64,000 bases of DNA from Eubacteriales bacterium (GCA_045590615.1 JAZNRH010000099.1:306-64305); one strand, 5' to 3'; numbered from the stretch's first letter, positions 7,127 through 33,397 are shown. Program-made: numbers and translations. Notes: generated from the letters alone by a model not told the origin.

Positions 7127-10100
7127 TTAAGGATTTGTATATTCTACGCCAGCCTTGGTGTAGGTATCAATCTCTTCGTTGTACTCGAACCAATCAATCA
7201 AGATGTAAGCAAGCTTTGTCTTGTTGTTGTCCTCGTAGGTACCAACCTTGGCAACGAATGAAGTTGTTCCTTCTGCGTTTTCGTTGTCAATGTCGTACTG
7301 CTTGATAGTATTGTATACGTCAACGAGTTCTTCGAAAGTAATAACTCTTGTTTCTGCTGTTTCGGCATCTGTTATTGCTATAATCTTAACAGTATCGTCA
7401 ATCTTCAAGCCTTCTGCATGCCAGTAGGTGAAGATTATGCTCATATCATCAAGAATTTCGGTAACTGTATCATTCTTGAGTGACTGTACTGCAGGATTGT
7501 TTTCTACGCTTACATAATCCTTTTGGGTTTCATCCCAAGCGTAAATACCACCCATGAAAATATCTGTTGCCTCATTGAAGCCCATTGCCTTGTTAACGCC
7601 TGTAACGTCCTCGTAGGTGTAAAGCTTCTTGAAGTTATATGAAGGACATACCTCTTCTCCGTGAGCTACCTGCTCCATATCGGTTACTGCGAAGAGATGC
7701 TCACGAGCATCCATCTTGTAATCGGAATCGGTAGTAGTCATACCGGAGAAGTCATCGTCAATTACTACAGATGAAAGCTTGTAAAGGGTTGTTTCCTTAT
7801 CATAGGTGAGGTAAATCTCACTATCGAGCTTAACTCTTGCAAAATCCGTGGGGATTTCGTCGCCCTTGTAATAGTCGATATATTCGTGCTCACCTGTTGC
7901 GTTCTTTGTATAAGGATAGTAAATAACTGTATTTTCGTCAAATACTATCTTAGCCTGCTTGGTTACGTACTCAACGGGGTCTGTTCCGGGAACAGCCTCT
8001 TCGATTGTAACAAGTCCCGTCTTTTCATCGATTACCATATACAAGTCCTTGCCTTGTTCTGCTACAAGAACTCTTTCAATCTCTACGCCCTCATCATTGG
8101 TAATGGTTGAAGCTGTGGTTGAAAGTGTATAGTAGCCCTTGGAGTCGATTGTATAGGTTACGAGCTTATTGGGATACATAACTCTTGCAATGCCGTCACC
8201 GTCGATATCCTTGATGTAAGGTCTGTATTCAGAACCATCGTCGGATACCGTCTCGCCTGAGAAGCCGTTGATAGCATTTGTAGCATTGAGGTTTACGAGC
8301 TGAGTTCTGCCGTTGATTACGAGATATGCAGGATAGAATACTTCGAATTCCTTTGTTGCTTCGTTAATCTGTGGCTTTGTAGCCTCGGTAACGTAGAGAA
8401 GGATTGCCTTGTTAAGTCCACCGTCACCCTGCTGTACGCGCTCTACAGAAATAGGCTCAGCGTAAAGGATTGCTCCGTCAACTACCCAATACTTAGCGTA
8501 ATTGTAGTTACCTGTATCAACGTTAACACCAAGAAGAGGATTCATACTCTCGTTGAAGGATACGAAAAAGTTAGTGTTACCATCGTTGCCGTCGCCATAG
8601 AAATATCTGTGTGTGTTCCAGAGTTTATAATATGGATAACCCGGACCACCGACACTCTTACCTGTATTAAGAGTCATTGTCTGTGAACGAGAGCCCCTGC
8701 TCTTAACAGACGTTGCATAACCGATTTCGATAGTTGGCTCAAGCATAACTGTGAAGGTGTCACCAAATGCGTAACCTACGACAATATCGCCTTCCTCAAT
8801 TTCAGAAAGCATTGATACGTTATCCTTAGGGAACACCATATCCATTGCAGGAATATCTGCAACACCCTCTACCTGTACGTAGTCCATTCTGTTCTTGTAC
8901 AAATACTCGAACTCAATTGACTTAGCTGTTATCTTCTTAACCTTGTAAGCGTCTGCATATTCCAAAATGAGATAGTCATAATAACCGTCTCCGTCCTTAT
9001 CAATGCCTGCGCTGTATCTCTGGAAACCTGAAACAGCCGTAAGGTTAGTCATATCAAGAATGGTAAACTGAATACATTCATTCCATCTGCTGCCTGATGT
9101 ATTATTATAAGAGAAAGCTCTTACAAGAGAATCTGATACAGAACCGTTAAGATTATAGCAACCGTAGGTTGCAACTGCAACGTCATCGTAATACGTAAGT
9201 CTCTTAAGGTTGAGCATTTCATCATTTTTATACTTCACACCGTCAAGTGTAATTTCATACAAAGCGTAATAGCCCTGCTGAAGGTTTCCTGCATCAAATG
9301 CCTTTCTCTTACTGTCAGGATAATTCTTTGCATCAACCAGAGCACCCGAGATACCCTCTTTTACGTTACCCTTAAGAGTAGCTGTGATATACTCGTCGCT
9401 TGTACCTATAGTAATAAGGTTGATATTACGTGTAAGAAGCTCGTCAGACTTACCAACGTATTCTTCAAGACCGTATTCTGTAAGAGAAAGTGTCTTGTAT
9501 TCAACGTTGTCGCCGTCAACAATTCTTACTACAATAGCATCAGGGTCATCTGTCTTTTCCTGGTCGATAATTGCATCAGCTCTTGTAAGCTCTGCTACGG
9601 GCTTGGCAGGGAACTCTACGAAGCCGTAGTTCTCGGTAGCAACTACCTGAGCAGGATACTCTTTGTACTTCCATACAGAGTCCTTAAGGGTGTTGATACC
9701 TGTGCTTGATGATGAAACTGAACCAAGAATACCCAAAAGTGTATCTGTGGGCTTAGCTGCGTTCTCGGTATACATAGGCTTGTCAAACGCATTGTAAACA
9801 AGCTGTACCACCTGAGCTCTTGTAAGAGGAGTTTCGCCGGCAACATCCTCAAGCTCTTCGTTGAGCTCAAGGTCAATAAGAGCCTTAGTTCTTACGTCTG
9901 TTGGCCACATTGCAGGTGAGAAATCCTTATAGCCGAGCATTACACAGACCATCTTAAGAGCTTCGTCGTATGTAATGTTTCCGTCAGGACGGAAGGTACC
10001 GTCCTCGTATCCACCAACGATACCGTTTTCTGCACACCAAGAAATATATCCTGCTGCCCAGTTGTTCTTTTTAACGTCAGGGAATGTTGTCGCGCCCTCA

Positions 10101-13453: not shown

Positions 13454-13939
13454 TTATTCTATGGTTATACTCTCAATTTTCTGGTCGATTAAGGGTCTGT
13501 CTCGCATATCGGTTCTTACACCTGCAATTTCATCAACAGCCTCAATGCCTTCGGTAACTCTTCCGAACGCAGCATACTGTCCGTCAAGATATGGAGCATC
13601 TGCGTGCATAATAAAGAATTGACTTCCTGCAGAATTAGGGTCCATAGCGCGAGCCATTGAAATTACGCCTCTCTCGTGCTTGATAGGATTATCAACACCG
13701 TTTGAAGCAAACTCGCCCTTTATAGTGTGTCCGGGACCACCCATTCCCGTTCCCTGAGGACAACCTCCCTGTATCATAAAGCCTGCTATTACACGGTGAA
13801 AAATAAGTCCGTCGTAAAAGCCCTCGTTTACAAGGTTTACAAAGTTTTCTACGGTAATCGGCGCAAGGTCGGGATAAAGCTCAAGCTTTATCTCGTTGCC
13901 ACTTGCCATTTTAATAGTTGCTTTAATTGTATTTGCCAT
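13454..13939 (-). CDS. ppiB: Peptidyl-prolyl cis-trans isomerase, cyclophilin type
   Basis: Cyclophilin signatures FHRVIAGFMIQGG, SMARA..PNSAGSQFFI. Start moved to ATG 13939 (MANTIKATIKM), since the longer ORF would overlap the ACP gene. Confidence 0.9.
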   Translation of the reverse strand: MANTIKATIKMASGNEIKLELYPDLAPITVENFVNLVNEGFYDGLIFHRVIAGFMIQGGCPQGTGMGGPGHTIKGEFASNGVDNPIKHERGVISMARAMDPNSAGSQFFIMHADAPYLDGQYAAFGRVTEGIEAVDEIAGVRTDMRDRPLIDQKIESITIE

Positions 13940-13943
13940 AATA

Positions 13944-14171
13944 TCAGCCCTGCCTTGCCTCGAGATATTCAACAAGGTCTCCCACGCTGAGAAGAGTGTG
14001 AATATCCTGTTCTTCAATTTCTACACCGAACTTATCCTCGCAAAGCACAACGAGGTCGGCAAGCTCTAAAGAATTGAGCTTAAGGTCGTTTACGAATTCT
14101 GCATCAAGTGTAATGAGCTCTGAAGGAACGTCAAGCTCCTCCTCGAGTGTTGATTTGATTTCTTCAAACAT
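13944..14171 (-). CDS. Stand-alone acyl carrier protein-like protein (75 aa)
   Basis: Size, acidic composition and the DLKLNSLELADLV helix-II-like segment with a candidate phosphopantetheine Ser (N-S-L in place of the usual D-S-L). Confidence 0.65.
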   Translation of the reverse strand: MFEEIKSTLEEELDVPSELITLDAEFVNDLKLNSLELADLVVLCEDKFGVEIEEQDIHTLLSVGDLVEYLEARQG

Positions 14172-14183
14172 AATCGTTCTCCT

Positions 14184-15890
14184 TTAGATTCTCTTAATCT
14201 TTTTTGTCGAGGTTTTGTCAAACTCGGTTTTTCTTATTTCAATACCCCTGATTTGCTTAAAAATCGGGAGCTTTTTATTAAGCTCTTGCACCTGAGCCTT
14301 TATTGCATCTCTGATTTCTTCGATTTCCTCAATGCCATTTTCTTTGGCTTTGTCAAAATCAGGGAAAATCTGAGCAGTTATAACGGTTTCGCCGGAAGCG
14401 TTTTCCTTGCCGACCACTATACATTCGGCAATATAATCAAGCTTATAGATATGTTCCTCAAGCTCCTCCGGAAAAACGTTCTTTCCGTTATCGAGAATTA
14501 TTATATTCTTCTTTCTGCCCGTGATATATATAAAGCCATCCTCGTCCACGTAGCCAATATCTCCCGTAGAAAACCAGCCCTCCTCGTCAATTGCCTGTTC
14601 AGTAAGCTCGGGTGCTTTATAATAGCCCTTCATTACGTTGGGGCCTCTTACTATAATTTCACCCTCTGCATCCTCAGGAGTAAGCTTATCAATTTTGACC
14701 TCTACACCCGGTACTGCCAGACCTACCGAGGCGTACTTCTTCCATTCAAACGGACATACCGAAACGAGTGGTGAGCACTCGGTTATACCATAGCCCTGAA
14801 CGAGATTTATGCCAAGCTCCTCAAAGCCCTTTACATAATCGGGAGAAAGAGCTGCGCCACCACATACAACCTTCTTGAGTCTGCCACCAAAGGCTGCGTT
14901 CACCTGAGAGAACAGCGCTGTTCTGAGGTCAATATTCAAACGTCTCAAAGCATTACTTATTGCTATTCCTCGCTTGAGCTTGGTAGTCTGATTATTCTTT
15001 GTCGCAGTGTCCCATATTCTCTTATAAATCGTGGTTACGAAAAGGGGAACAAGCACCATTCCCGTAGGCTTGAATATCTGGAAATTCTTGAGCAAATATT
15101 TCATACCGTCGTTTATACAAACAGTTGCGCCAATAAGAATAGGTGTGAGTATTCCACAGGTCATTTCGTAGGTGTGGTGCGTCGGAAGCACCGACATAAT
15201 AACGTCATTTTCATCAAAGCTAAGCATAGTTGCAGAAGCGTTGATTGCCGAAACGATATTGTTTTGTGAAAGAACGACTCCCTTCGAAGTACCCGTAGTA
15301 CCCGAGGTAAATATAATTACTGCGTCATCTTCAGGATTGATTTCATAATCAAGAAATTCCGTGCAGTCCTGTCTTAAAAGTCTCTTTCCCTTCTCTACAA
15401 GCTCTGCCGTACAAAGAAAGCTTTCTGCTTTTTTCTTTTCTTCGTCAAAATCGCCCACTCTTATAAAATAAGAAATCGAGCTTTTCTCGGAAAGCTGTTC
15501 AAAATACTTCTGAAATCTGTCCGAATATACTACAGCTGAAACCTCGGCAAGCTCAAGGAAGTTACCGATTTCTTCCTCTGTAAGCTCCTTGTCAAGAGGA
15601 ACTATTACCGAGCCTCCGTTAACAGCTGCAAGATACGTGGCAATCCACTCCTTAGAGGTTTCACCGATTACTGCTATATGCTTACCCTTTAATCCAAGTG
15701 AATAAAAGGCTGTTCCAAGTCTGTCAATATATTTATCAAAATCAAGAAAGCTAACGTCAACAAGCTCATCCTTGTTGACACCTTTATATCTTAAATAAGT
15801 TTTATCTTGGTGTATTTCAGCTGCAGATTTCACAAGCTCTTTGAGATTGGAGAATTCTCTGCGCTGAAAATTCGGATATGCTTTTTTCAT
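14184..15890 (-). CDS. AMP-dependent acyl-CoA/acyl-ACP synthetase (long-chain fatty acid ligase family)
   Basis: AMP-binding motif FTSGTTGTSKGV, YGITE, GWFSTGDIGYVDEDGFIYITGRKK, C-terminal KIKR. Confidence 0.85.
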   Translation of the reverse strand: MKKAYPNFQRREFSNLKELVKSAAEIHQDKTYLRYKGVNKDELVDVSFLDFDKYIDRLGTAFYSLGLKGKHIAVIGETSKEWIATYLAAVNGGSVIVPLDKELTEEEIGNFLELAEVSAVVYSDRFQKYFEQLSEKSSISYFIRVGDFDEEKKKAESFLCTAELVEKGKRLLRQDCTEFLDYEINPEDDAVIIFTSGTTGTSKGVVLSQNNIVSAINASATMLSFDENDVIMSVLPTHHTYEMTCGILTPILIGATVCINDGMKYLLKNFQIFKPTGMVLVPLFVTTIYKRIWDTATKNNQTTKLKRGIAISNALRRLNIDLRTALFSQVNAAFGGRLKKVVCGGAALSPDYVKGFEELGINLVQGYGITECSPLVSVCPFEWKKYASVGLAVPGVEVKIDKLTPEDAEGEIIVRGPNVMKGYYKAPELTEQAIDEEGWFSTGDIGYVDEDGFIYITGRKKNIIILDNGKNVFPEELEEHIYKLDYIAECIVVGKENASGETVITAQIFPDFDKAKENGIEEIEEIRDAIKAQVQELNKKLPIFKQIRGIEIRKTEFDKTSTKKIKRI

Positions 15891-24471: not shown

Positions 24472-24513
24472 GCATAAAAATACATTCCCCCAAGAAAAAT
24501 TCTCGGGGGAATG
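24472..24513 (-). terminator. Terminator ending the two-component/glycolipid/ABC operon
   Basis: On - strand: CAUUCCCCCGAG / CUUGGGGGAAUG stem with 7-nt loop, then UAUUUUUAUG. Confidence 0.65.
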
Positions 24514-24516
24514 TCG

Positions 24517-27510
24517 TTATTCTGTTCTTAGAGCAACCACGGGATCCTTCTTGGCTGCGCTTCTTGAAGGTATAATTCCTGAAAACAAAGTAAGTATTAC
24601 ACTTATTATAACCAGCGTGCAAGCAACCGGGATTGGCAAATACGCATTGAGAGTCGCAATTCCCGTAAGAGAGTGAATAACGGCGTTAATCGGTACGCAT
24701 AACAGATAAGTCACCCCGACTCCAAGCAAGCCCGATGCCATACCTATAATGACGGTCTCGGCATTGAACATAAGAGAAACGTCTCTCTTTGATGCACCGA
24801 TTGCACGAAGTATTCCTATTTCCTTTGTTCTCTCCTGCACCGAAATGAGCGTAATAACACCTATCATAATAGAGGAAACAATAAGTGAAATCGCAACGAA
24901 GGCAATAAGGACGTAGGTAATGGTGTTGATTATCGTTGTAATCGACGAAAGCATTATTCCGATATAGTCGATATACTTGATTCGGAAAAGCTCATCAACA
25001 CTACTGTTGTATTCCTCGATTACCTCTTCGATTACGTCCTTGTTTTCAAAGCTTGAGGCATACAGATTTATGCTTGACGGAGAGTCCAGCGAAACATATC
25101 CGAGCGTCTTGAGATTTGCATCGTAGCTCGATTTTGAAAAATCCATAACGCCGTCGTAATAACGCACGAAGTCCTCGGTAGTGAAGCCCGAAACGAATTC
25201 ATTTAACATCGTTACAAGCTGAGGCGTTGGAAGTGTAGAAAGCTGAGATTTCACCTTTAGGGCATAGTCTGACCTCACCCTCTCGGAAATAGAAGCCGTC
25301 ATAAAGGCATCGAGGTCCTTGTCGTCCATCGAGCTAACGTACTCTCTCACCTCGTCCTCCGAGCTACCCATTTCCGAAACGATAGCTTCAACGATAGCGT
25401 TTTCTATATCCTGCCTGGTCATAACTCCAAGCATTCCCTCTACCTGCGCGCTGACGAAGGCTTCGTCGGGAATTGCCTGAATTCTGATATAAAGCTCTGC
25501 CTTCTCGGTGTCGTTGAGCTTTTCGATATAAGACTTGAACTCCTTCTCCTTGATTTCGGGAGTAATTGCTGCAGAATCACGGAAGGGCTTGCCGGTGAAT
25601 ATATCTTTGCCCTCATTTTCAAGCTGTGCCTTGACAGCAGATGAGCTGCTTGTGTTTTCAATTATATATTCGGTCAAAAGAGAGGTGTAAGCTATTGAAC
25701 CCGTAAGGAGCATCGTTGAGCTGTCCTCGGCAGGACGGATTACACCTACTACCTTAAGAGGAATTGCGTTTGCATAGAGATATCTCAACCCTGCGTCCGA
25801 CTGTCTCATATCGGTGTAAAGCCCCGTCGACTCGTCAAGAGTATAGCAGGACGAATTGAGAACGGCACGATATTCCTTGTCACAGATTTCCTTGTAGCTC
25901 CAGCTCCTGTCATTATAGTCAAGCTCGGTTTTTTCGGTTGCAGACCGCACTATTTTGCCTGCATCCTCCTCGGAGGTAAGACCGAGTGCATAAAGTGTCA
26001 TATCGTCAAGCTCGTTGTTCTCGTCAAGCACGAGAACAACCTCGTTATAGCTGTTAGGCCAAGCTCCGTAAACCAGCTCGTACTGCTCTGTTATAAGCTC
26101 GCTGACAGGCGCTCCGTTTTTGCCCGAAAGCATTTCCTGCCAGAGCTTTACTCCGTCCATACCGGCAAAGCCACTCATTGCCGAGCCACTCGAGGCAAGC
26201 TGGTCTCTTGCGCTGAGCATAGTCGAAAAATCTACACCCATATGCTTCAAAATCAATTCCTGAAGCATCGTTTGAGTGTCGGAATATATGATTTTACCGT
26301 CGGGACTCTCGGTATAAACCAAAAGCTGAATATCATAGGTGTACTGCACTCCGTTGAGCGCCTCTGCAAGCCTTGAATCAGGCTGACTTTTTTCTTTTTC
26401 AATAAAGCTCTTGAACGCCTTCAGGTCATTTTTCTCTGCCTCAAGGTTGTTCATTGAGCTAACCATATTATAGATTGCAGGCTTTACGTAAACTGCATCG
26501 AGCTCGTGCTCGGCATCTCCCGACGAAGCTCCCATAAAGGTTTCTATCAGGGTAGACATATCCATTACCGAAGCCTCAACACTCAAGGGATATGAGGACA
26601 GAGCCTTTTCCTGAACCTCGTCAATATAGGTTGTAAAGCCCTGAGAAAGTGCGTAAATCAAGGCTATTCCAATAATACCGATTGAGCCAGCAAAGGCTGT
26701 CAGAATAGTTCTGCCACGCTTTGTTATAAGGTTTTTAAGAGAAAGTCCAAAAGAGGTTTTCAAAGACATCGACGGCTTTTTTACTCCCTTGAGGCTTTCA
26801 GAGCTCTTACTCTCCTCGTCGGACAAAATCGGATTTGAATCGTCTGTTATAACTCCATCGAGCATCTTGATTATTCTCGTTGAATAACGCTGAGCAAGCT
26901 CGGGATTATGAGTAACCATAATTACGAGGCGCTCGTGAGAAATTTCCTTTAGGATTTCCATTACCTGAACGCTGGTCGCAGTATCAAGAGCGCCCGTCGG
27001 CTCGTCGGCAAGAATTATATCGGGATTGTTCACAAGCGCTCTTGCAATAGCAACTCTCTGCATCTGACCACCCGACATCTCGGAGGGGCGCTTGTAAATC
27101 TGCTCCGAAAGTCCAACCTCATCAAGCGCCTTTTTGGCGCGCTCTCGTCTCTCTGACTTGCCGACTCCCGAAAGAGTAAGGGCAAGCTCAACGTTTTGCA
27201 AAACCGTCTGATGTGGAATGAGGTTGTAGCTTTGAAAAACAAAGCCGATAGAATGGTTTCTGTAGGTGTCCCAATCCCTGTCGCTGAAGCTCCCGGTCGA
27301 TTCCCCGTTAATTATAAGGTCACCCTCGGTGTATTGGTCGAGTCCACCAATAATATTAAGCATAGTAGTTTTGCCACAGCCCGATGGTCCGAGGATTGAA
27401 ACAAATTCGCTTTTTCTAAATTTCAAATTAATTCCACGAAGTGCCTCAACCTTCAGGTTGCCTGCAGGATATTCTTTTTTAATTCCCTTCAGTTCTAACA
27501 TTATTATCAC
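24517..27510 (-). CDS. Fused ABC transporter: ATP-binding domain plus MacB/FtsX-type permease with a very large extracytoplasmic domain (997 aa)
   Basis: Walker A GPSGCGKTT, signature LSGGQMQRVAIARAL, Walker B IILADEPT. TM1 at ~268-292, ~560-aa non-hydrophobic region, C-terminal FtsX core (QERTKEIGILRAIGASKRDV plus 3 TM). Start could be M1 or M4. Confidence 0.85.
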   Translation of the reverse strand: MIIMLELKGIKKEYPAGNLKVEALRGINLKFRKSEFVSILGPSGCGKTTMLNIIGGLDQYTEGDLIINGESTGSFSDRDWDTYRNHSIGFVFQSYNLIPHQTVLQNVELALTLSGVGKSERRERAKKALDEVGLSEQIYKRPSEMSGGQMQRVAIARALVNNPDIILADEPTGALDTATSVQVMEILKEISHERLVIMVTHNPELAQRYSTRIIKMLDGVITDDSNPILSDEESKSSESLKGVKKPSMSLKTSFGLSLKNLITKRGRTILTAFAGSIGIIGIALIYALSQGFTTYIDEVQEKALSSYPLSVEASVMDMSTLIETFMGASSGDAEHELDAVYVKPAIYNMVSSMNNLEAEKNDLKAFKSFIEKEKSQPDSRLAEALNGVQYTYDIQLLVYTESPDGKIIYSDTQTMLQELILKHMGVDFSTMLSARDQLASSGSAMSGFAGMDGVKLWQEMLSGKNGAPVSELITEQYELVYGAWPNSYNEVVLVLDENNELDDMTLYALGLTSEEDAGKIVRSATEKTELDYNDRSWSYKEICDKEYRAVLNSSCYTLDESTGLYTDMRQSDAGLRYLYANAIPLKVVGVIRPAEDSSTMLLTGSIAYTSLLTEYIIENTSSSSAVKAQLENEGKDIFTGKPFRDSAAITPEIKEKEFKSYIEKLNDTEKAELYIRIQAIPDEAFVSAQVEGMLGVMTRQDIENAIVEAIVSEMGSSEDEVREYVSSMDDKDLDAFMTASISERVRSDYALKVKSQLSTLPTPQLVTMLNEFVSGFTTEDFVRYYDGVMDFSKSSYDANLKTLGYVSLDSPSSINLYASSFENKDVIEEVIEEYNSSVDELFRIKYIDYIGIMLSSITTIINTITYVLIAFVAISLIVSSIMIGVITLISVQERTKEIGILRAIGASKRDVSLMFNAETVIIGMASGLLGVGVTYLLCVPINAVIHSLTGIATLNAYLPIPVACTLVIISVILTLFSGIIPSRSAAKKDPVVALRTE

Positions 27511-28150
27511 CTTTCATTCTATATATGACGACGTATGCAATCGCACACAGTGGAAGCGCAAGAAAGACGTCCCAAACCGAATGCTGCTTAAGAAACACGG
27601 TTGAAAGAGAAATCACAACGGTAGTCAACACGGCGTATACCCTCCAGCCCTTCGCCGAAAAGCACTTTGAATCAAGCATTCCGAACATTGCGGCAAACGA
27701 GCCGATAACGTGAATTGAGGGACATACGTTGGTGTTGGTATCAAAATTATAAAAGTGAGATATAAAGAGGGTAAATATATTGTCTCTTTCAAATTCAACA
27801 GGCCTGAGATTCTGACAAGTGGGAAATAAAAGATATATCACCATCGTAACCGAATAAGTAACAATTATAAAATACATCATTCTGCGAAAGGCTGGAATAT
27901 CGAAGAAAAACAGATATGCAAGCGTTCCCACAAGAAAGACAAACCAATACATATAAGGAATTACGAAAAATTCGCAAAACGGAATTAAATCGTCAAGTGG
28001 CGAATGCATCGGTATGTAAAAATCCACCTCATATATTCTCTCTACGAACAAGAACATTATTCCATAAATTACCCAAAAAATCAATAACTTTATGTGACTA
28101 AACTGTGGCGAATTTATTTTTGAGAACCGAAATTCCTTGTAATTTGTCAT
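27479..28150 (-). CDS. PAP2-superfamily membrane protein (lipid phosphatase / phosphotransferase-like)
   Basis: Six hydrophobic segments. PSIHV and KQHSVWDV motifs spaced as in PAP2 C2/C3 motifs. The 3' end overlaps the ABC gene start. Confidence 0.6.
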   Translation of the reverse strand: MTNYKEFRFSKINSPQFSHIKLLIFWVIYGIMFLFVERIYEVDFYIPMHSPLDDLIPFCEFFVIPYMYWFVFLVGTLAYLFFFDIPAFRRMMYFIIVTYSVTMVIYLLFPTCQNLRPVEFERDNIFTLFISHFYNFDTNTNVCPSIHVIGSFAAMFGMLDSKCFSAKGWRVYAVLTTVVISLSTVFLKQHSVWDVFLALPLCAIAYVVIYRMKGDNNVRTEGN

Positions 28151-28152
28151 TT

Positions 28153-29241
28153 TTACATCCTTTTCAATGCTTCATATATTAGTCCCTGAGGGTTTAACGG
28201 AGCAATTGCAGCGAGATTTGCCGACATTTCCCCGAGTCTTTCGGGCGACGAAAGCAACGATACAATGCTATCGAAAAGCACTCCTATATCCTCGGCAGAC
28301 ACTGCGCAGTTTCTTGACACAAAATAATTTTTATTGTGCTCCTCACAGCCTGCAACTGTATTTATAAGTGCCATGGGAACAGCCATTGCCATAGACTCGC
28401 TCGTGCTTATTCCACCCGGCTTTGTAACGAACAGGTCTGCCGACGAAAGAAGGTCAGACACCTTATCGGTAAAGGAATAAATCCTGAAGCTCTTATGCTC
28501 GGAAAATTTATCCGAAAGACTTTTATAAAGCTTGTTATTGCTCCCACATACTATACTCACAATATGCTCTTCACCAAGCGTGTCTGCAAGCATTTCTGCA
28601 AGCTCCTCAATCGGACCACAGCCCATACTTCCACACATCACAAGAACGTGTGTTGTGGATTCGGGTATGCCAAGCTCACGCCTTGCGTTTGTATTCTTGG
28701 AAAAAAATTCGCGCCTTACAGGTATTCCACTTTCCACAACGCTCGTAATTCCATTGTCTGCAAACTCACCCTTCAAGCCACGGGGAACAAAATAAATATC
28801 CATTTTGGACTCGGAAACGCTCGGAGCGCAGGTATAGTCTGTTGCAACAAAGGCTGTTTTGAAGCTGTAGCTACACTGTCTTTTTGCTTCGGCAAGAATT
28901 AAGGAGGCAAGAGGGTGGGTGGAAATTACCACGTCGGCATCTGCGATTTCATGCGATAAGTCCTCTGCTCCCTTTTTTAAGCACCTTGAAACAATCGACC
29001 TTTCCTCAAACACCGACGGATTATTCTCGCAAAAACGGTAGCCCTTGTCAAACGCCTTGGGCAGATGTCTGTATATTGCTGAATGGCTTTTTGCAATCAG
29101 GCTGGAAAACCTTTGCGAAATAAATGAAAATGCATCGAGCACCCTTGAGGTCTCAGAATTCAGTAAAAGCTCCTCGTTTATGGCATCTGCCACCGAGTTG
29201 TGCCCCTGACCCGTATTACAGCTAAGAATTACAAATTTCAT
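28153..29241 (-). CDS. UgtP / MGDG-synthase-family glycosyltransferase (diacylglycerol glycosyltransferase-like, GT28)
   Basis: MKFVILSCNTGQGHNSVA, ATDY, GIPVRREF, VTKPGGISTSES parallel B. subtilis UgtP (ILTANYGNGH, TDF, GIPIRPQF, ITKPGGITLTEA). Start at ATG 29241 forms an ATGA overlap with the upstream stop. Confidence 0.8.
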   Translation of the reverse strand: MKFVILSCNTGQGHNSVADAINEELLLNSETSRVLDAFSFISQRFSSLIAKSHSAIYRHLPKAFDKGYRFCENNPSVFEERSIVSRCLKKGAEDLSHEIADADVVISTHPLASLILAEAKRQCSYSFKTAFVATDYTCAPSVSESKMDIYFVPRGLKGEFADNGITSVVESGIPVRREFFSKNTNARRELGIPESTTHVLVMCGSMGCGPIEELAEMLADTLGEEHIVSIVCGSNNKLYKSLSDKFSEHKSFRIYSFTDKVSDLLSSADLFVTKPGGISTSESMAMAVPMALINTVAGCEEHNKNYFVSRNCAVSAEDIGVLFDSIVSLLSSPERLGEMSANLAAIAPLNPQGLIYEALKRM

Positions 29242-29708
29242 TTTACCGTCTCCCTTTGCATACGCTCTAACAGTCTTTCGAGGCGTGGCCTTTCGTAACG
29301 CTGGATTATGATGTACGGCAGATTTCCTAAAAAATACAAAATGCTCACCACAACTCCACCAAGCCCCTTCCATATAAACACTGCACCAAAGCCAAATAAT
29401 AACAGCCCAACGTGTATAACCTCGGCTACGCAGGTTTCCATAAGCATATCCTCTACGACCTCTTTTTTAGGCCGTGACACCATTTCTCGCTTGGTTATCA
29501 GCCCGGGAAAAAGCTTACTCATATCAAGAAAGAACTTCTGCCACATTTTTACCGACATACGCTCGTATATTTCCCCGTTTTTTTCAAAGCTGAACTGACG
29601 GTAGGGATATTTGCCTTTTTTGAACATTCTCTTCGGCAACAGCCTACCCGTAACAAAAGCTATTATTCCTATTATGGCAAAATAAATAATACATTTAATT
29701 GCGCTCAT
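29238..29708 (-). CDS. Small membrane protein resembling glycosyl-4,4'-diaponeurosporenoate acyltransferase (CrtO-like)
   Basis: 156 aa. N-terminal TM, central ETCVAEVIH and C-terminal IIIQRYERPRLERLL resemble, from memory, the E-T-x-x-A-E-x-x-H and QRYNRPRL motifs of CrtO-family proteins. Confidence 0.5.
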   Translation of the reverse strand: MSAIKCIIYFAIIGIIAFVTGRLLPKRMFKKGKYPYRQFSFEKNGEIYERMSVKMWQKFFLDMSKLFPGLITKREMVSRPKKEVVEDMLMETCVAEVIHVGLLLFGFGAVFIWKGLGGVVVSILYFLGNLPYIIIQRYERPRLERLLERMQRETVK

Positions 29709-29726
29709 AATAACCCTCTCAAAACA

Positions 29727-30779
29727 TTATTTTGTAAATATTACTCTGAATTCTGCGCCACCACAGGTTCGGTTATTGACCTCTATTTCAGCTCCGATTT
29801 TTGCGCAGATCCGGGACACAAGGGCAAGACCGAGACCGTTACCCTCTTCTCTTCTTGACGAGTCGCCCTGATAAAAACGCTCGAAAATATGCTCGATATC
29901 CTCACTCTTTATTCCAACTCCACTGTCAGTCACCGTAAAAACGACCCTATCGGCTTCTTCGGTAAGATAGATTCCGACAAATCCGTTCTGAGTATTGAAT
30001 TTTATAGCATTTGCTATCAGATTGGTCCATACGTGGAAAAGAAGTCCTCTGTTGCCGACCCACACGACACTCTCAAGTTCTATATCAAAATCAATATTTT
30101 TTTCGGTCCACTCCTTTTCAAGCGAAAAAATGGATTGACGGATTTCCTCATCGAGCCTGAACTGCTCGTCGTGATTGGAAATCGTTCCGTTTTCTACCTT
30201 CGAAAGAAGCAAAACGTTTCTCACAAGCTCCGAAAGCCTTGCCGTGCTCACCCTGATTTTTTCAACGTACTCATCTCTTTGCTCGTCGCTGAGTGTCTTA
30301 TCCTGAAGAAGAGTAGCATAGCCTTCTATGGTAGCAAGAGGCGTCTTGAATTCGTGCGAGACATTTGAAACAAAATCATTTTGCAAAAGCTCGGTGCTTT
30401 TCAGCTCCTTAGTCATACGATTGAAGCTGGCGTAAAGCTGTTTGGTTTCCCTTACTGCCCCCTTTTTGTCAAAATGTATATCAAAATCTCCCTCTGCTAC
30501 CCTCATCATTGCATGGCTCAGCTCGGTTATTGGATTGAGCAAATAATATGTGATGACGTATGTAACTATTCCACCGATTGAAACTGCAAGAATAAGCACC
30601 CAGATAAAAGATGGTAGCTTTACAACGGCTGTCGGAATAAGGGCGGCTATACCGTTTGATAAAAGGGTAACGAATAACAGCTCAATAAATATTACGAGCA
30701 TAAAAAGAAGCCTTATAGAAAACCTTGTCTTTACCTCTATTTTATTCTTCTTTTCGCTTAATTTGAATACCTCTTTCAT
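29727..30779 (-). CDS. Sensor histidine kinase, intramembrane-sensing type
   Basis: Two TM helices separated by ~9 residues (PTAVVKLPS), HAMP-like linker, H-box SHEFKTPL, N/G boxes (NLIANAIKF, DSGVGI, GNGLGL). Confidence 0.9.
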   Translation of the reverse strand: MKEVFKLSEKKNKIEVKTRFSIRLLFMLVIFIELLFVTLLSNGIAALIPTAVVKLPSFIWVLILAVSIGGIVTYVITYYLLNPITELSHAMMRVAEGDFDIHFDKKGAVRETKQLYASFNRMTKELKSTELLQNDFVSNVSHEFKTPLATIEGYATLLQDKTLSDEQRDEYVEKIRVSTARLSELVRNVLLLSKVENGTISNHDEQFRLDEEIRQSIFSLEKEWTEKNIDFDIELESVVWVGNRGLLFHVWTNLIANAIKFNTQNGFVGIYLTEEADRVVFTVTDSGVGIKSEDIEHIFERFYQGDSSRREEGNGLGLALVSRICAKIGAEIEVNNRTCGGAEFRVIFTK

Positions 30780-31447
30780 AGCTTTTCCACCTTATATCCC
30801 ATTCCTCGCATTGTCACTATTTTGAAATCGGGGTTATCCCTGAATTTTTCTCTCAGCCTTCCTATGTGCACGTCTACCGTATGAGTATCGCTTTCGGTAT
30901 CATAACCCCACACATCGTCCATCATCTGCTGACGGGTAAAAATCCTGCCCGAATAGGATGCCATTTTATAAAGAAGCATAAATTCCTTTTGAGGCAAAAC
31001 AATTATCTTATCCCCACTTTTCACGCTGAGAGAATCGTATTCCATAACGGTTGAGCCAATTGTCAGACGTCTTTCATGAATTGAATTTGCCCTTCTGAGT
31101 AGTGCACCCACGCGCAAAACCATTTCGTTGATATTAATCGGCTTGACCATATAATCGTCACCACCCAGCATAAAGCCTCGTCTCATATCGTCGAACTGGT
31201 CTTTTGCCGTTATTATAAGTACAGGGAGCTCGCTATTTGTTTTTTTCAGCTCACGAACAAGCTCGTAACCGTCCATTACAGGCATCATTATATCCGAAAT
31301 GACCAAATCAAAGCGTTCTTTGTCAATTTGCTCAAGAGCCTCCTGACCGTTTGATACTCCTTTTACAACGTATCCACTCTGTTCAAGTACTTTTTCGTAA
31401 AGATTTCTCAGCTCTCTGTCGTCCTCAGCCACAAGTATTTTGAACAT
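30776..31447 (-). CDS. OmpR/PhoB-family response regulator
   Basis: Receiver domain (ILVAEDD, DLVISDIMMP, ITAK) plus winged-helix output (LPQKEFMLLY, VDVHIGRLREK, GMGYK). ATGA overlap with the kinase gene. Confidence 0.9.
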   Translation of the reverse strand: MFKILVAEDDRELRNLYEKVLEQSGYVVKGVSNGQEALEQIDKERFDLVISDIMMPVMDGYELVRELKKTNSELPVLIITAKDQFDDMRRGFMLGGDDYMVKPININEMVLRVGALLRRANSIHERRLTIGSTVMEYDSLSVKSGDKIIVLPQKEFMLLYKMASYSGRIFTRQQMMDDVWGYDTESDTHTVDVHIGRLREKFRDNPDFKIVTMRGMGYKVEKL

Positions 31448-31479
31448 TTTTACACCTCTTCATTCCATATTATGCTAAT

Positions 31480-31509
31480 ATTGTACACAGTTTACACCCA
31501 AAAAATCAA
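31480..31509 (-). promoter_or_regulatory. Candidate promoter of the response-regulator operon
   Basis: On - strand: TTGATT (31509-31504), 18 nt, TACAAT (31485-31480). Confidence 0.35.
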
Positions 31510-31548
31510 CTCAGCATAAACAATTTGAAATAAAATATAATTTTTTAC

Positions 31549-31577
31549 TTGACTTTTTTATTATCTGATGTTACACT
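31549..31577 (+). promoter_or_regulatory. Candidate promoter of the SGNH hydrolase gene
   Basis: TTGACT (31549-31554), 17 nt, TG-t-TACACT (31569-31577). Confidence 0.4.
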
Positions 31578-31608
31578 CGTCTTAAAGTAATCTAACTTGG
31601 AGTGTAAT

Positions 31609-32256
31609 ATGAAAAAAATCAAACTTCTATTTCAAGGCGACAGCATAACAGACGCAGGACGCGACAGAGAGGACATACATAATCTCGGATACGGATACCC
31701 GAAGTATGCCGCAGAAATTCTCAAAAAGAATAACCCCGACATTGAATTTGAATTCGTTGATTTAGGTATCAGTGGAAACGAAGTAAGCCATGTGCTTGCA
31801 AGAATGGAAAAAGACATTATAGACATTCAGCCTGATATTGTTTCAATCCTTTTGGGAATAAACGACGTTTGGCACTATGCCGAAAAGAAAAATTGGATTG
31901 ACAACACTGAATTTGAAAATGATTATCGCACAATACTCACGGCTATAAAGGAACGCACTAATGCTAAAATTATGATATTAGAGCCCTTCCTCGGTCCTGT
32001 TGAGGAGAAGGCCGGCTTCAGAGAGGACCTTCCCATCAAGACCGAAATCATAAGAAAGCTTGCACGTGAATTTGCCGACGAGTACGTTCCTCTTGACGGT
32101 CTCTTCGCATCTGAGTTTATCAATCACAACCATCTCGATTATATGAGAGACGGAGTTCACCCAACCAACATCAGCAACGCAGGTATTTCTACGGGATCAG
32201 AATTTTTAGCAGGTATCTATGCAGAGTATATGCAAAGAATAATTGACAGAATGTAA
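31609..32256 (+). CDS. SGNH/GDSL-family hydrolase (lipase/acylhydrolase)
   Basis: Block I FQGDSITD, block III GINDV, C-terminal DGVHP. Start at ATG 31609 with GGAG RBS. Confidence 0.8.
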   Translation: MKKIKLLFQGDSITDAGRDREDIHNLGYGYPKYAAEILKKNNPDIEFEFVDLGISGNEVSHVLARMEKDIIDIQPDIVSILLGINDVWHYAEKKNWIDNTEFENDYRTILTAIKERTNAKIMILEPFLGPVEEKAGFREDLPIKTEIIRKLAREFADEYVPLDGLFASEFINHNHLDYMRDGVHPTNISNAGISTGSEFLAGIYAEYMQRIIDRM

Positions 32257-32311
32257 AAAACTGATGTTCGCTAACGCTCACGATTTAATAAGTAGACTTT
32301 GCTTGTAATAA

Positions 32312-32349
32312 AAATCAGCTTGTAGCAAAATGCTACAAGCTGATTTTTT
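32312..32349. terminator. Bidirectional terminator between the SGNH hydrolase gene and uxuA
   Basis: atcagcttgtagca (32314-32327) / tgctacaagctgat (32331-32344), flanked by aaaa and tttttt. Confidence 0.75.
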
Positions 32350-33397
32350 ATTTCTTGATTGCCTTTTCACAAGCCTCAAAGAGTCCGTTGATATAGGTTG
32401 CACCCAGTGCTCTGTCATAAAGTCCATAGCCCGGCTTGCCCGTTTCTCCCCATATCATTCTTCCGTGGTCGGGTCTTACGTATCCGTCAAAGCCTGTTTC
32501 TACAAGAGCCTTAGTAATCTCGTACATATCGAGACTTCCACAAGCAGAGAGGTGTCCGCTTTCTTCAAAGCTTCCGTCGTCCATAATTGCGATATTTCTC
32601 ATATGCATAAATGCAATTCTGTCCATTGCAGAATACTTTCTGACCATTGCAACCGTATCGTTGGTCTTAGCGCAACCGAGTGAGCCTGTGCAAAGGCAAA
32701 GGCTATTTGCAGGGCTGTCAACTATTTTGAGCATTCTGTCAAGGTTAGCCTCGCAGGTGATTATACGGGGAATACCGAAGATTGAATATGGTGGGTCATC
32801 GGGGTGAATTGCCATTCTTACTCCACATTCCTCGGCAACGGGTATAATCTTCTTGAGGAATTTTTCAAGATTTCTCCAAAGCCCCTCCTCACCGATTTCG
32901 CCGTAAGCAGTTATAAGCTCACGAACCTCCTCCTGCGAATAGCTCGAGTCCCAACCCGGAAGATGAATATCGTCCTTGAGGGGATCAAGGTCCTTCATCT
33001 GTTCCCAATACATAACAAGACTCGTTGAGCCGTCGGGAGCTTTCTTGTCAAGCTGTGTTCTCGTCCAGTCAAAAACAGGCATAAAGTTATAAGTAATGCA
33101 CTTTACTCCGTATTTTGCGCATCTTCTTATATTCTCGCAATATACGTCGATGAGATGGTCTGCATCTTCTCTGCCGAGCTTGATGTTCTCCGGAACGGGA
33201 ACTGACTCTACGATATCGAAAATCAATCCGTTTGCTTCTACCGTCTCCTTCATTTTTTTGAGGCTCTCCTCGGGCCACACCTCACCGGGCGCAACGTCAT
33301 AAATTGCGCTTACTACCGAACGCATACCCGGAATCTGACGGATATACTCAAGTGAAATGGGGTCGGATTCGCCATACCAGCGAAATGACATTTTCAT
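32348..33397 (-). CDS. uxuA: Mannonate dehydratase
   Basis: N-terminus [24 protein letters not shown] and overall length are typical of UxuA. Confidence 0.9.

Follow-up and report, generated by a model that had tools for sequence, protein, structure and literature searches.

The locus considered here raises the question of whether six adjacent genes, tightly packed on the minus strand between 24517 and 31447 of a 64,000-nt stretch of DNA (the window), form one functional system. As read from the sequence, they encode a response regulator (RR), a histidine kinase (HK), a CrtO-like protein, a glycosyltransferase (GT), a PAP2-like protein and a fused ABC transporter. The first-pass annotation proposed that the two-component system (TCS) senses envelope stress through the ABC protein and responds by making or acylating a membrane glycolipid. 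Our analysis suggests instead, with reasonable though not high confidence, that the region is a composite, made up of a five-gene membrane-lipid module and a resident MacB-type ABC gene that would stand outside it functionally.

Gene content and junctions

All six open reading frames lie on the minus strand where they had first been placed (Table 1), and the junctions described for them can be read in the sequence. The RR and HK genes overlap by ATGA, and the 18-nt gap between the HK and CrtO-like genes holds a ribosome-binding site, GAGAGGG. The CrtO-like and GT genes likewise share an ATGA, which requires the GT start at 29241 (MKFVILSC...) instead of the alternative ATG farther upstream, at 29373. 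The GT stop and the PAP2 ATG are 2 nt apart, and the PAP2 stop codon (27479-27481) lies inside the ABC gene by 20 nt, with the ABC ATG at 27501; translation of the ABC gene could instead start from a GTG at 27510. A signal scan found no credible minus-strand terminator between any of the six genes and, 3' of the ABC gene, the expected hairpin with a 15-bp stem followed by a T-run. The promoter proposed upstream of the RR gene is present but is an ordinary match: 17 promoter-like sites were found here against 15.2 expected from shuffled sequence, which is no excess.

Table 1. Features of the locus, in window coordinates
Feature	Coordinates	Strand	Basis
Intrinsic-terminator-like hairpin and T-run, end of unit	24482..24514	-	Signal scan
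Fused NBD-FtsX ABC protein, MacB-type, 4 TM, 994 aa	24517..27501	-	Pfam, model, fold
Divergent PAP2-superfamily membrane enzyme, 223 aa, 6 TM	27479..28150	-	Motifs, AlphaFold, Foldseek
GT28-family diacylglycerol-type glycosyltransferase, 362 aa	28153..29241	-	MGDG_synth and Glyco_tran_28_C
CrtO-like membrane acyltransferase, 156 aa	29238..29708	-	Pfam CrtO PF18927
Intramembrane-type histidine kinase, 350 aa	29727..30779	-	2 TM, then HAMP, HisKA and HATPase_c (Pfam)
OmpR/PhoB-family response regulator, 223 aa	30776..31447	-	Pfam: Response_reg 109 bits, Trans_reg_C 79 bits
Promoter-like TTGATT-18-TACAAT, 5' of RR gene	31480..31509	-	9/12 match
Divergent GDSL/SGNH lipase-acylhydrolase gene (context)	31597..32256	+	Lipase_GDSL_2, 83 bits
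Segment missing from closest relative's collinear locus	27514..32347	.	Five-gene module and divergent GDSL lipase gene

The kinase appears to be of the intramembrane type, as had been thought: its two transmembrane (TM) helices are joined by a loop of about 5-9 residues (script value about 5), without an extracytoplasmic domain, and in its family this loop is about 4-12 residues long. It does, however, contain a Pfam HAMP domain, at 34.6 bits. Its nearest solved relatives are generic HisKA kinases, with BceS absent at E<=1e-15.

The 156-aa protein is CrtO-like, scoring 99.8 bits against PF18927 (cut-off 27.3), a family found in 91/91 of its homologues. Within this family E91, T92, E96, H99, N129, Q136, R137 and R140 are invariant. 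The N-terminus is predicted to lie outside and, from the loop charge distribution, the conserved E, H, N, Q and R residues at the cytoplasmic membrane interface. The staphyloxanthin acyltransferase CrtO of S. aureus is likewise a small three-helix membrane protein with PF18927 that is presumed to O-acylate a lipid-linked hexose, but the window protein has no carotenoid gene context and its partner is a diacylglycerol (DAG)-type glycosyltransferase. For that partner, the initial family guess also stands, with Pfam scores of 46.6 bits for MGDG_synth and 37.4 bits for Glyco_tran_28_C, both over their cut-offs. The best solved relative in the PDB is 9wde, a processive DAG beta-glucosyltransferase (E 1.6e-23), and plant MGD1 (4wyi) matches at E 2.4e-19. 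The two-domain GT28/MGDG_synth architecture is common to the window GT, UgtP/YpfP and MGD1. The score against the NCBIfam UgtP model NF010135, however, is 132.7 bits, far under the equivalog cut-off of 500.

A lipid cassette and its two-component system

The gene order CrtO > GT > PAP2 on one strand recurs in Oscillospiraceae and other Clostridia. Loci around CrtO-like genes were surveyed in species-representative genomes, and among the 41 with enough flanking sequence a GT gene was found in 36, a PAP2-like gene in 28 and both in 24. Recurrent neighbours include genes for a CDP-alcohol phosphatidyltransferase (7 loci), a DAG-kinase-like YegS protein (6), PlsY (4) and DegV (4), and there is a cardiolipin synthase neighbour in one locus, L074. 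The recurrence of the cassette and its lipid-gene neighbours bear out the suggestion that the three enzymes are linked functionally, both to one another and to the metabolism of membrane lipids. Gut Clostridia thus widely carry a genuine but uncharacterised lipid cassette: in the literature we found no published description of a CrtO-GT-PAP2 cassette or of the lipid product of any of its members.

An orthologous TCS is adjacent in 13 of the 41 well-flanked loci, and the RR orthologues beside CrtO cassettes score about 330-350 bits. A search from the kinase side found orthologues beside CrtO-GT-PAP2, beside cardiolipin synthase and CDP-alcohol phosphatidyltransferase, or beside GNAT-DegV. This two-component family looks like a membrane-lipid regulator and not like a Bce-type detoxification sensor. 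In relatives, an OmpR-type array of three or four direct repeats of TTGAnnnnnnn, with an 11-bp period, overlaps the -35 region immediately 5' of CrtO. Where a TCS is adjacent, 13 of 21 loci have such arrays, versus 4 of 59 where none is; their density 5' of CrtO is about 95x that elsewhere, and they are found 5' of RR genes too. Control of the CrtO-GT cassette by this two-component family is thus supported in relatives. The window itself has no 11-bp-spaced TTGA array: its best PWM score is 3.8, whereas real arrays have a median of 26.7. At the RR promoter there is no more than a degenerate TTCAAA-N14-TTGATT, and the 18-nt gap before the CrtO-like gene lacks an array, so that control of this particular operon by its own TCS is at most putative.

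The ABC gene and its genomic context

The proposal of a MacB-type ATPase-FtsX fusion holds. Pfam detects ABC_tran (residues 24-172) and FtsX (870-990), but MacB_PCD (PF12704) has no match in the window protein and none precomputed for its homologues, although the whole-chain structural alignment does span MacB. Residues 2-284 align with the MacB equivalog model, and in a Foldseek search with the ABC model (pLDDT 74) the full-length MacB structures 5lil, 5gko and 5lj7 come out on top (E about 1e-28, target-normalised TM-score 0.67-0.72). Full-length MacB, of the type VII MacAB-TolC system, is the best match in both sequence and fold, and shares with the window protein an N-terminal NBD and a 4-TM FtsX part with the extracytoplasmic domain between TM1 and TM2. 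This outside domain is about 200 aa long in MacB but about 560 aa in the window protein, which has an extra helical region at about residues 648-785 and whose clostridial host is presumably Gram-positive. No MacA-like adaptor gene adjoins the ABC gene in the window or in five stand-alone orthologue contexts checked. In one relative, L165, there is a separate MFP-ABC-FtsX operon nearby, which is another transporter's.

Orthologues of the ABC protein, about 1000 aa long and 62-78% identical to it, fall into over 100 clusters, and in 6/6 sampled genomic contexts they stand alone, with neither a TCS nor any CrtO-like, GT or PAP2-like gene in the vicinity. The closest relative (L081/L082) has MFS, GH2 and UxuA genes collinear with the window and then the ABC gene directly, the other five genes being missing; tblastx of L081 jumps from window position 32354 to 27513. 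The 379-bp spacer before the ABC gene in L081/L082 contains, by eye, a terminator-like hairpin and an AT-rich upstream region. In L165 the GDSL gene (minus) is head-to-head with the ABC gene (plus), and the 24 nt 5' of the window ABC ATG are identical to those of L165 at 22 positions. In the window these nucleotides are now within the PAP2 reading frame, the last ~12 codons of which run through the ancestral ABC ribosome-binding site. From these three relatives only, we infer an insertion here rather than a loss in the relatives. On this comparative evidence the ABC gene is best read as a resident, widely conserved gene outside the lipid module, and since it is conserved separately from the five-gene set, the six-gene arrangement appears to be a local juxtaposition. 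The module would have been placed directly 5' of it, most simply by insertion, and, lying immediately upstream, would therefore now be co-transcribed with an ABC gene that is functionally separate.

These results bear on whether the six genes are a Bce-like envelope-stress module, in which the fused ABC protein would act as sensor or co-sensor of antimicrobial peptides or bacitracin and signal to the kinase, the response being export plus glycolipid modification. The kinase, with its two TM helices and negligible outside loop, and the adjoining FtsX-family ABC gene do recall BceRS-BceAB, and the terminator-free packing of all six genes is what such a module would lead one to expect. PAP2 > ABC adjacency is seen again in L074, where a 45%-identical paralogue of the ABC gene begins about 20 nt beyond PAP2. 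Among more distant relatives of the kinase, 7 of 80 loci contain, within 8 kb upstream and on the other strand, a gene for a fused NBD-FtsX homologue, and in two of them, L114 and L119, TTGA boxes lie directly 5' of this divergent gene. The kinase/cassette family may therefore have some functional link with the fused ABC family. However, the gene-neighbourhood check does not sustain the claim that the six genes are a conserved module: L074 is the only one of the 41 well-flanked loci with a fused ABC gene 3' of the cassette, and 12 of the 13 that have the TCS as well as the cassette are without one. Moreover, in Bce modules the 10-TM permease BceB and the ATPase BceA are separate proteins, whereas the window protein is a single 4-TM fusion of MacB type; Bce modules are defined by co-occurrence of TCS and transporter, a pairing that the window families do not show; and the kinase contains a HAMP domain, with BceS not among its close solved relatives. 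Because the six genes do not co-occur, and because the ABC orthologues and the closest relative lack the module, sensing by the kinase through the ABC protein is unlikely, and we give a Bce-like module little credence.

The PAP2-like enzyme and the probable role of the module

The same genes could also be read as a bacitracin-type resistance locus, in which the PAP2-like protein would be an undecaprenyl-pyrophosphate phosphatase (BcrC/PgpB-like) acting with an ABC exporter, the GT and CrtO-like proteins being bystanders. Known bacitracin loci (BceRS-AB/BcrC) combine a TCS, an ABC transporter and a PAP2 protein, a set that the locus resembles. The first assignment of the 223-aa protein to PAP2 falls short for the window sequence alone, which scores 20.4 bits against a cut-off of 27.2, but stands for its family, in which 32/32 members match PAP2/PAP2_3 (E values down to about 1e-8). 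In a Foldseek search with its AlphaFold model (pLDDT 90), the top five matches are all PAP2-fold enzymes, and its motifs LRP, PSIH and STxxxxQHSxxD are predicted at the outer face, as in BcrC/PgpB. The family invariants RP, PSxH and SxX5HX3D keep the catalytic His/His/Asp and the C1 Arg; compared with KX6RP, PSGH and SRX5HX3D, however, the C1 Lys is absent and the C3 Arg is replaced by Thr, which makes the activity uncertain. The model is also nearer to SMSr and the IPC synthases (query-normalised TM-score 0.60-0.64) than to PgpB of B. subtilis (0.44) or E. coli (0.35), and Foldseek ranks LpxE too above PgpB. The top structural matches (8ijq, 9vj4, 9ivc) and the PAP2_3 match point to sphingomyelin synthase/IPC synthase (Aur1), but these matches have weak E values (6e-3 to 4e-2) and 10-12% identity, and the window protein keeps the C1 'RP'. 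That the PAP2-like enzyme is a transferase is no more than a hypothesis. Its gene goes with the CrtO-like and GT genes, not with ABC genes, and in L016 a DAG-kinase-like YegS gene lies immediately 3' of the GT gene with no PAP2-like gene detected in the locus. Bacitracin-type resistance is accordingly an unlikely explanation, even though the loss of HexSDF, discussed below, also alters the bacitracin MIC (PMC10128005). It is very improbable that the locus is a remnant of a carotenoid pathway like that of staphyloxanthin, with a glycosylated C30 carotenoid as the acyl acceptor of the CrtO-like protein: the Pfam CrtO match is well over its cut-off, but the partner is a GT28 DAG-type enzyme and not a CrtQ-like GT2, the hosts are gut Oscillospiraceae, and in 78 loci no recurrent cluster was identified as a carotenoid (crtMNPQ) gene, the annotated ones being lipid, regulator and transporter genes and some smaller clusters being unannotated.

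The closest characterised analogue is HexRK-HexSDF of C. difficile, in which a TCS lies beside an operon with an annotated MGDG synthase as its first enzyme; the system controls the synthesis of a specialised glycosyl-diradylglycerol that affects daptomycin and bacitracin susceptibility, and no inducing signal was found for HexRK (PMC10128005). The window TCS also adjoins an operon with an MGDG-synthase-like GT. Its other partners differ, being CrtO-like and PAP2-like proteins instead of the polysaccharide deacetylase HexD and the MprF-like flippase HexF, families absent from the six genes and from the annotated recurrent neighbour clusters.

For the five-gene lipid module we therefore favour a role in which the three enzymes make or remodel a glycosyl-diacylglycerol, probably building a modified sugar-lipid. 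The kinase, without an outside sensor domain, would probably read a property of the bilayer itself and signal to the OmpR-type regulator. The GT28/MGDG-synthase-type transferase would transfer a hexose at the cytoplasmic face, the acceptor being diacylglycerol or a pre-existing glycolipid, and the CrtO-like protein may, by analogy with CrtO and the glucose of staphyloxanthin, O-acylate the sugar. The PAP2-like enzyme, with its predicted active site at the outer face, could dephosphorylate a lipid phosphate and so supply diacylglycerol, or, as sphingomyelin/IPC synthases do, could move a phospho-head group between lipids with release of diacylglycerol. The HexRK-HexSDF precedent indicates that a TCS beside an MGDG-synthase-like GT operon can control the synthesis of a special glycolipid (PMC10128005).

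The three-enzyme cassette and its neighbours

The six minus-strand ORFs reported in the first-pass annotation, for a response regulator (RR), a histidine kinase (HK), a CrtO-like protein, a glycosyltransferase (GT), a PAP2-like protein and a fused NBD-FtsX ABC protein, were all found as described, as were their junctions. These are the ATGA overlap of the RR stop with the HK start, the 18-nt spacing from HK to the CrtO-like gene with a ribosome binding site (RBS) within the gap, the ATGA overlap of the CrtO-like stop with the GT start (given a GT start at 29241), a 2-nt gap between the GT and PAP2-like genes, and a PAP2-like frame that stops 20 nt within the ABC gene. As claimed, there is no credible minus-strand terminator between the six genes and a strong hairpin with a T-run follows the last of them. 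The promoter site proposed upstream of RR exists but is an ordinary 9/12 consensus match, and such matches occur at chance rate in the region. Nothing in the window matched Rfam families or tRNA models. Pfam bore out the guessed families, the exception being the 223-aa PAP2-like protein, which by itself scores under the PAP2 cut-off; all 32 aligned members of its family match PAP2 and PAP2_3.

A CrtO-like profile scan of one genome per species confirmed at least 583 relatives, the hosts among the matches listed being mostly Oscillospiraceae, plus other Clostridia MAGs. Matches to the six window proteins were mapped in 80 retrieved loci, and counts were made over the 41 that extend at least 3 kb upstream and 6.5 kb downstream. 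The recurring unit, on a single strand, is CrtO-like, GT, PAP2-like: GT is present in 36 of these 41 well-flanked loci, the PAP2-like gene in 28 and both together in 24. An orthologous two-component system (TCS; RR and HK) is present in 13 (RR ~330-350 bits, HK ~300-330 bits) and a fused ABC gene in a single one, L074, where it is ~45% identical to that of the window. The three enzymes make up the conserved unit, and the intramembrane TCS joins them in about one third of the well-flanked loci. In 12 loci a MarR-like regulator is found instead of the TCS, which suggests one cassette with alternative regulators. This MarR-like gene, of ~157 aa and with a MarR_2 match of 25 bits (under the cut-off), lies directly 5' of the CrtO-like gene on the shared strand in loci without the TCS.

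Membrane lipid metabolism is the theme of the cassette neighbourhood. Neighbours include a CDP-alcohol phosphatidyltransferase (7 loci), a DAG-kinase-like YegS protein (6), PlsY (4) and DegV (4), and in L074 a cardiolipin synthase. At L016 the YegS gene is directly 3' of GT and a PAP2-like gene was not detected. In 11 loci the next gene after PAP2-like, in the same orientation, codes for a transporter of the AI-2E family (PF01594) that might serve the cassette as exporter or flippase.

Features of the window and of comparison loci
Feature	Locus	Position	Strand	Remark
RR	window		-	Pfam Response_reg + Trans_reg_C
HK	window		-	Pfam HAMP + HisKA + HATPase_c
CrtO-like	window		-	Pfam PF18927, 99.8 bits
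GT	window		-	Pfam MGDG_synth + Glyco_tran_28_C
ABC	window	24517-27501	-	Pfam ABC_tran + FtsX
Terminator after ABC	window	24514-24482	-	
Promoter site	window	31509-31480		
GDSL/SGNH lipase-acylhydrolase	window	31597-32256	+	divergent from the RR-to-PAP2-like genes; absent in L081/L082
GDSL	L165	6201-6854		
MGDG_synth-type GT (second)	L074	3602-4726	-	downstream of the HK gene
Cardiolipin synthase	L074	7478-8878	-	upstream of RR and HK
TTGA-box array	L074	5630-5655	-	between HK and second GT
MarR-like	L014 (and 11 others)	7792-8265		
AI-2E transporter	L025 (example)	13642-14778		
TTGA-box arrays	L012, L016-L018, L022, L025, L033, L035, L041, L057, L059, L063, L073			~40-110 nt upstream of CrtO-like gene
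TTGA-box arrays	L057, L063, L073			5' of RR
TTGA-box arrays	L091 (position given), L092, L100	9092-9117		5' of GNAT-DegV operon
TTGA-box array	L114	5550-5586		5' of divergent fused ABC
TTGA-box array	L119	2868-2904		5' of divergent fused ABC
TCS with cardiolipin synthase (PLDc_2 x2) directly upstream, FUSC_2 downstream	L087	5883-7316		human-gut metagenome contig
as L087	L090	5879-7282 and 10100-10672		human-gut metagenome contig
TCS with cardiolipin synthase and FUSC_2	L093	5885-7318 and 10232-11812		human-gut contig
as L093	L096			human-gut contig

The fused ABC gene

The ABC protein is a MacB-type, 4-TM fused transporter. Its AlphaFold model (mean pLDDT 74, the outside domain mostly 80-90) has full-length MacB structures as best fold matches (E ~1e-28, target-normalised TM-score 0.67-0.72), and the sequence search also points to MacB. 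The outside domain comprises ~560 aa and has a helical region at about residues 648-785. The MacB_PCD Pfam domain was not found in the protein and no adaptor gene adjoins it. The protein is not BceB-like, and the present cassette is neither a Bce module nor a MacAB-TolC pump.

Across Oscillospiraceae and other Clostridia the ABC family is strongly conserved and of very large size, the best 120 clusters all being ~1000 aa long and 62-78% identical (P0093-P0211). In each of the six genomic contexts that were sampled, the orthologue stands by itself amid unrelated genes. The closest relatives, at L081/L082 (78% identity), are collinear with the window through genes for an MFS protein (80% aa identity), a GH2 protein (81%) and UxuA (95%), and this collinear block runs straight into the ABC gene over a 379-bp spacer, in which a terminator-like hairpin and an AT-rich upstream part were seen by eye. 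Window positions 27514-32347, which hold the GDSL gene and the five genes from RR to PAP2-like (hereafter the module), have no counterpart there. At L165, where the ABC protein is 73% identical, the ABC gene has a GDSL gene as its head-to-head neighbour, and in the window the module lies between this same pair. The 24 nt 5' of the window ABC start, including the GAAAGG RBS, are identical to L165 at 22 positions, and in the window they now code for the C-terminal end of the PAP2-like protein. Most simply, the ABC gene was already resident here, stands outside the module and became its neighbour by insertion. The module would have inserted just upstream of the ABC RBS, so that the ABC gene lost the promoter region it had and is now presumably transcribed by read-through from the module. 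Alternatively the relatives may have lost the module, although this requires more events than an insertion in the window. As to a direct repeat flanking the insertion, a weak similarity of the RBS-proximal regions upstream of RR and ABC (z 4.8) was missed by a neutral repeat finder, whose matches in the region, of 16-20 nt, were all different ones. L074 is the sole other locus in which PAP2 is followed by a fused ABC gene.

The interpretation of the six genes as a system for envelope sensing and export does not hold, and sensing by the kinase through the ABC protein is unlikely: the ABC orthologues stand alone in the six contexts sampled, and a fused ABC gene accompanies the cassette at only 1 of 41 well-flanked loci. 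Nor are the six genes a conserved set, the five module genes being missing from the collinear L081/L082. What stands of the proposed glycolipid response is that the three enzymes form a conserved cassette amid lipid genes. The observation made in the first-pass annotation is confirmed, and its interpretation partly supported.

The two-component system and TTGA-box arrays

The kinase is of the intramembrane type, as proposed, with two TM helices and a connector of ~4-12 residues, uniform across its family; among solved structures those nearest to it are of generic HisKA kinases and not of BceS. In loci with an adjoining TCS, direct repeats of TTGAnnnnnnn in 3-4 copies with an exact 11-bp period are found 5' of CrtO, the final repeat overlapping the -35 region (for example, at L017, 9922-9958, TTCAACAATTC TTGATAATTGC TTGAGCCTTTG TTGACAATAAG). 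The strict three-box pattern, with a chance expectation of 0.22 per 64 kb, occurs 56 times in the retrieved loci and is concentrated just upstream of CrtO, where array density in a 430-nt interval is ~95 times that found elsewhere. It is found there in 13 of the 21 loci that have an adjacent TCS and in 4 of the other 59. Further arrays stand in front of RR genes, of a GNAT-DegV operon that follows kinase orthologues, and of divergent fused ABC genes beside more distant kinase relatives. A direct-repeat array at the -35 region is the classic OmpR/PhoB-type arrangement. The TTGA array is a candidate binding site of the RR family, and the comparison of loci gives good evidence that the RR would drive the cassette in relatives.

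The arrays are absent from the window, where position-weight scores between 24.4 and 31.65 kb reach 3.8 at most, the median for real arrays being 26.7. The HK-CrtO gap that carries the boxes is ~130-155 nt in the relatives inspected (e.g. L017, L025, L057) and 18 nt in the window, and the window RR promoter has only TTCAAA-N14-TTGATT. Because there are no arrays, the gap is short and the RR promoter is degenerate, the window operon need not still be under its own RR. Part of the GDSL-RR spacer weakly resembles the GDSL-ABC spacer of L165 (z 3.6), a hint that the operon may now use the former ABC promoter.

In a kinase-side metagenome search three contexts of the orthologues were found: CrtO-GT(-PAP2) on the 3' side; cardiolipin synthase, a FUSC_2 membrane protein and a CDP-alcohol phosphatidyltransferase in flanking positions; and GNAT-DegV. 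In L087, L090, L093 and L096 a CDP-alcohol phosphatidyltransferase or a second cardiolipin synthase is nearby and the CrtO cassette is absent. The kinase family is therefore not dedicated to the cassette, yet it is consistently tied to membrane-lipid genes. More distant kinase relatives (HK 210-280 bits; L106, L114, L118, L119, L123, L139 and L143) have a fused NBD-FtsX homologue at most 8 kb upstream on the opposite strand, 39-57% identical to the window ABC over aligned parts; in three of them, L118, L123 and L139, this homologue has the RR gene as its immediate divergent neighbour.

Possible chemistry and related systems

The GT scores 132.7 bits against the NCBIfam UgtP equivalog model (threshold 500), and its nearest solved structures are those of a processive DAG beta-glucosyltransferase and plant MGD1. 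It would act at the cytoplasmic face on diacylglycerol or glycosyl-DAG. The CrtO-like protein, in which an N-terminal helix is followed by ~70 residues of loop rich in Lys and Arg, a helical hairpin and a C-terminus of basic character, may acylate the sugar of the freshly made glycolipid; this fits because its invariant residues (E91, T92, E96, H99, N129, Q136, R137, R140) lie at the predicted cytoplasmic interface. In the alignment of the PAP2-like family R116-P117, P144-S145-x-H147 and S183-x5-H190-x3-D194 are invariant, the C1 Lys is missing and Thr occupies the C3 Arg position. A manual positive-inside reading predicts an N-in protein of six helices with these motifs at the outer face, in agreement with the helix pattern of its AlphaFold model (pLDDT 90). 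The model matches human SMSr and two IPC synthases at a query-normalised TM-score of 0.60-0.64, with weak E-values, and scores lower against LpxE (0.50) and PgpB proteins (0.44, 0.35). The enzyme could be a lipid-phosphate phosphatase supplying diacylglycerol to the GT, which agrees with the recurring DAG-kinase-like genes near cassettes, or a sphingomyelin-synthase-type head-group transferase, likewise releasing diacylglycerol. Apparent fusions of PAP2-like proteins with a CrtO-like N-terminus (P0271), a GT C-terminus (P0260) and a cardiolipin-synthase N-terminus (P0263) were dropped as Rosetta-stone evidence because an identical PAP2-like part sits on truncated partners; deletion variants or chimeric assemblies of one lineage are more probable than true fusions.

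As a speculation that is unlikely to hold, the cassette might make a new membrane-lipid class in dominant gut Clostridia: a glycosyl-DAG O-acylated by the CrtO-like protein, to which a sphingomyelin/IPC-synthase-like PAP2 transferase would add a phospholipid-derived phospho-head group on the outer leaflet, the released DAG returning to the GT. A bilayer-sensing kinase would set this cycle via an 11-bp TTGA-box regulon that would also cover cardiolipin, fatty-acid-binding (DegV) and, in some lineages, MacB-type ABC genes.

The closest characterised system to the cassette and TCS is HexRK-HexSDF of C. difficile, a TCS adjoining an operon that begins with an MGDG-synthase-like GT; a special aminoglycolipid and resistance to daptomycin and bacitracin depend on it, and no inducer has been found (PMC10128005; PMC11898633). 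Its plan is the same as that of the present cassette, while the tailoring enzymes differ. To our knowledge it is the only TCS-controlled glycolipid pathway that has been worked out. In the literature searched we found no description of the CrtO-like/GT28/PAP2 trio or of intramembrane kinases linked to glycolipids. TCS-linked glycolipid remodelling is already known; this widespread cassette is uncharacterised. The window also carries a caution, that tight operon packing, even start/stop overlap, can come from insertion beside an unrelated resident gene. How susceptible Firmicutes are to daptomycin, bacitracin, bile acids and host peptides is set by their membrane glycolipids. At least 583 stretches of genomes that each represent one species, Oscillospiraceae for the most part, carry the three-enzyme cassette, and this points to an undescribed lipid in common gut bacteria; the cassette would give the CrtO family its first non-carotenoid role, and the TTGA-box arrays offer a testable regulon for the intramembrane-kinase family.
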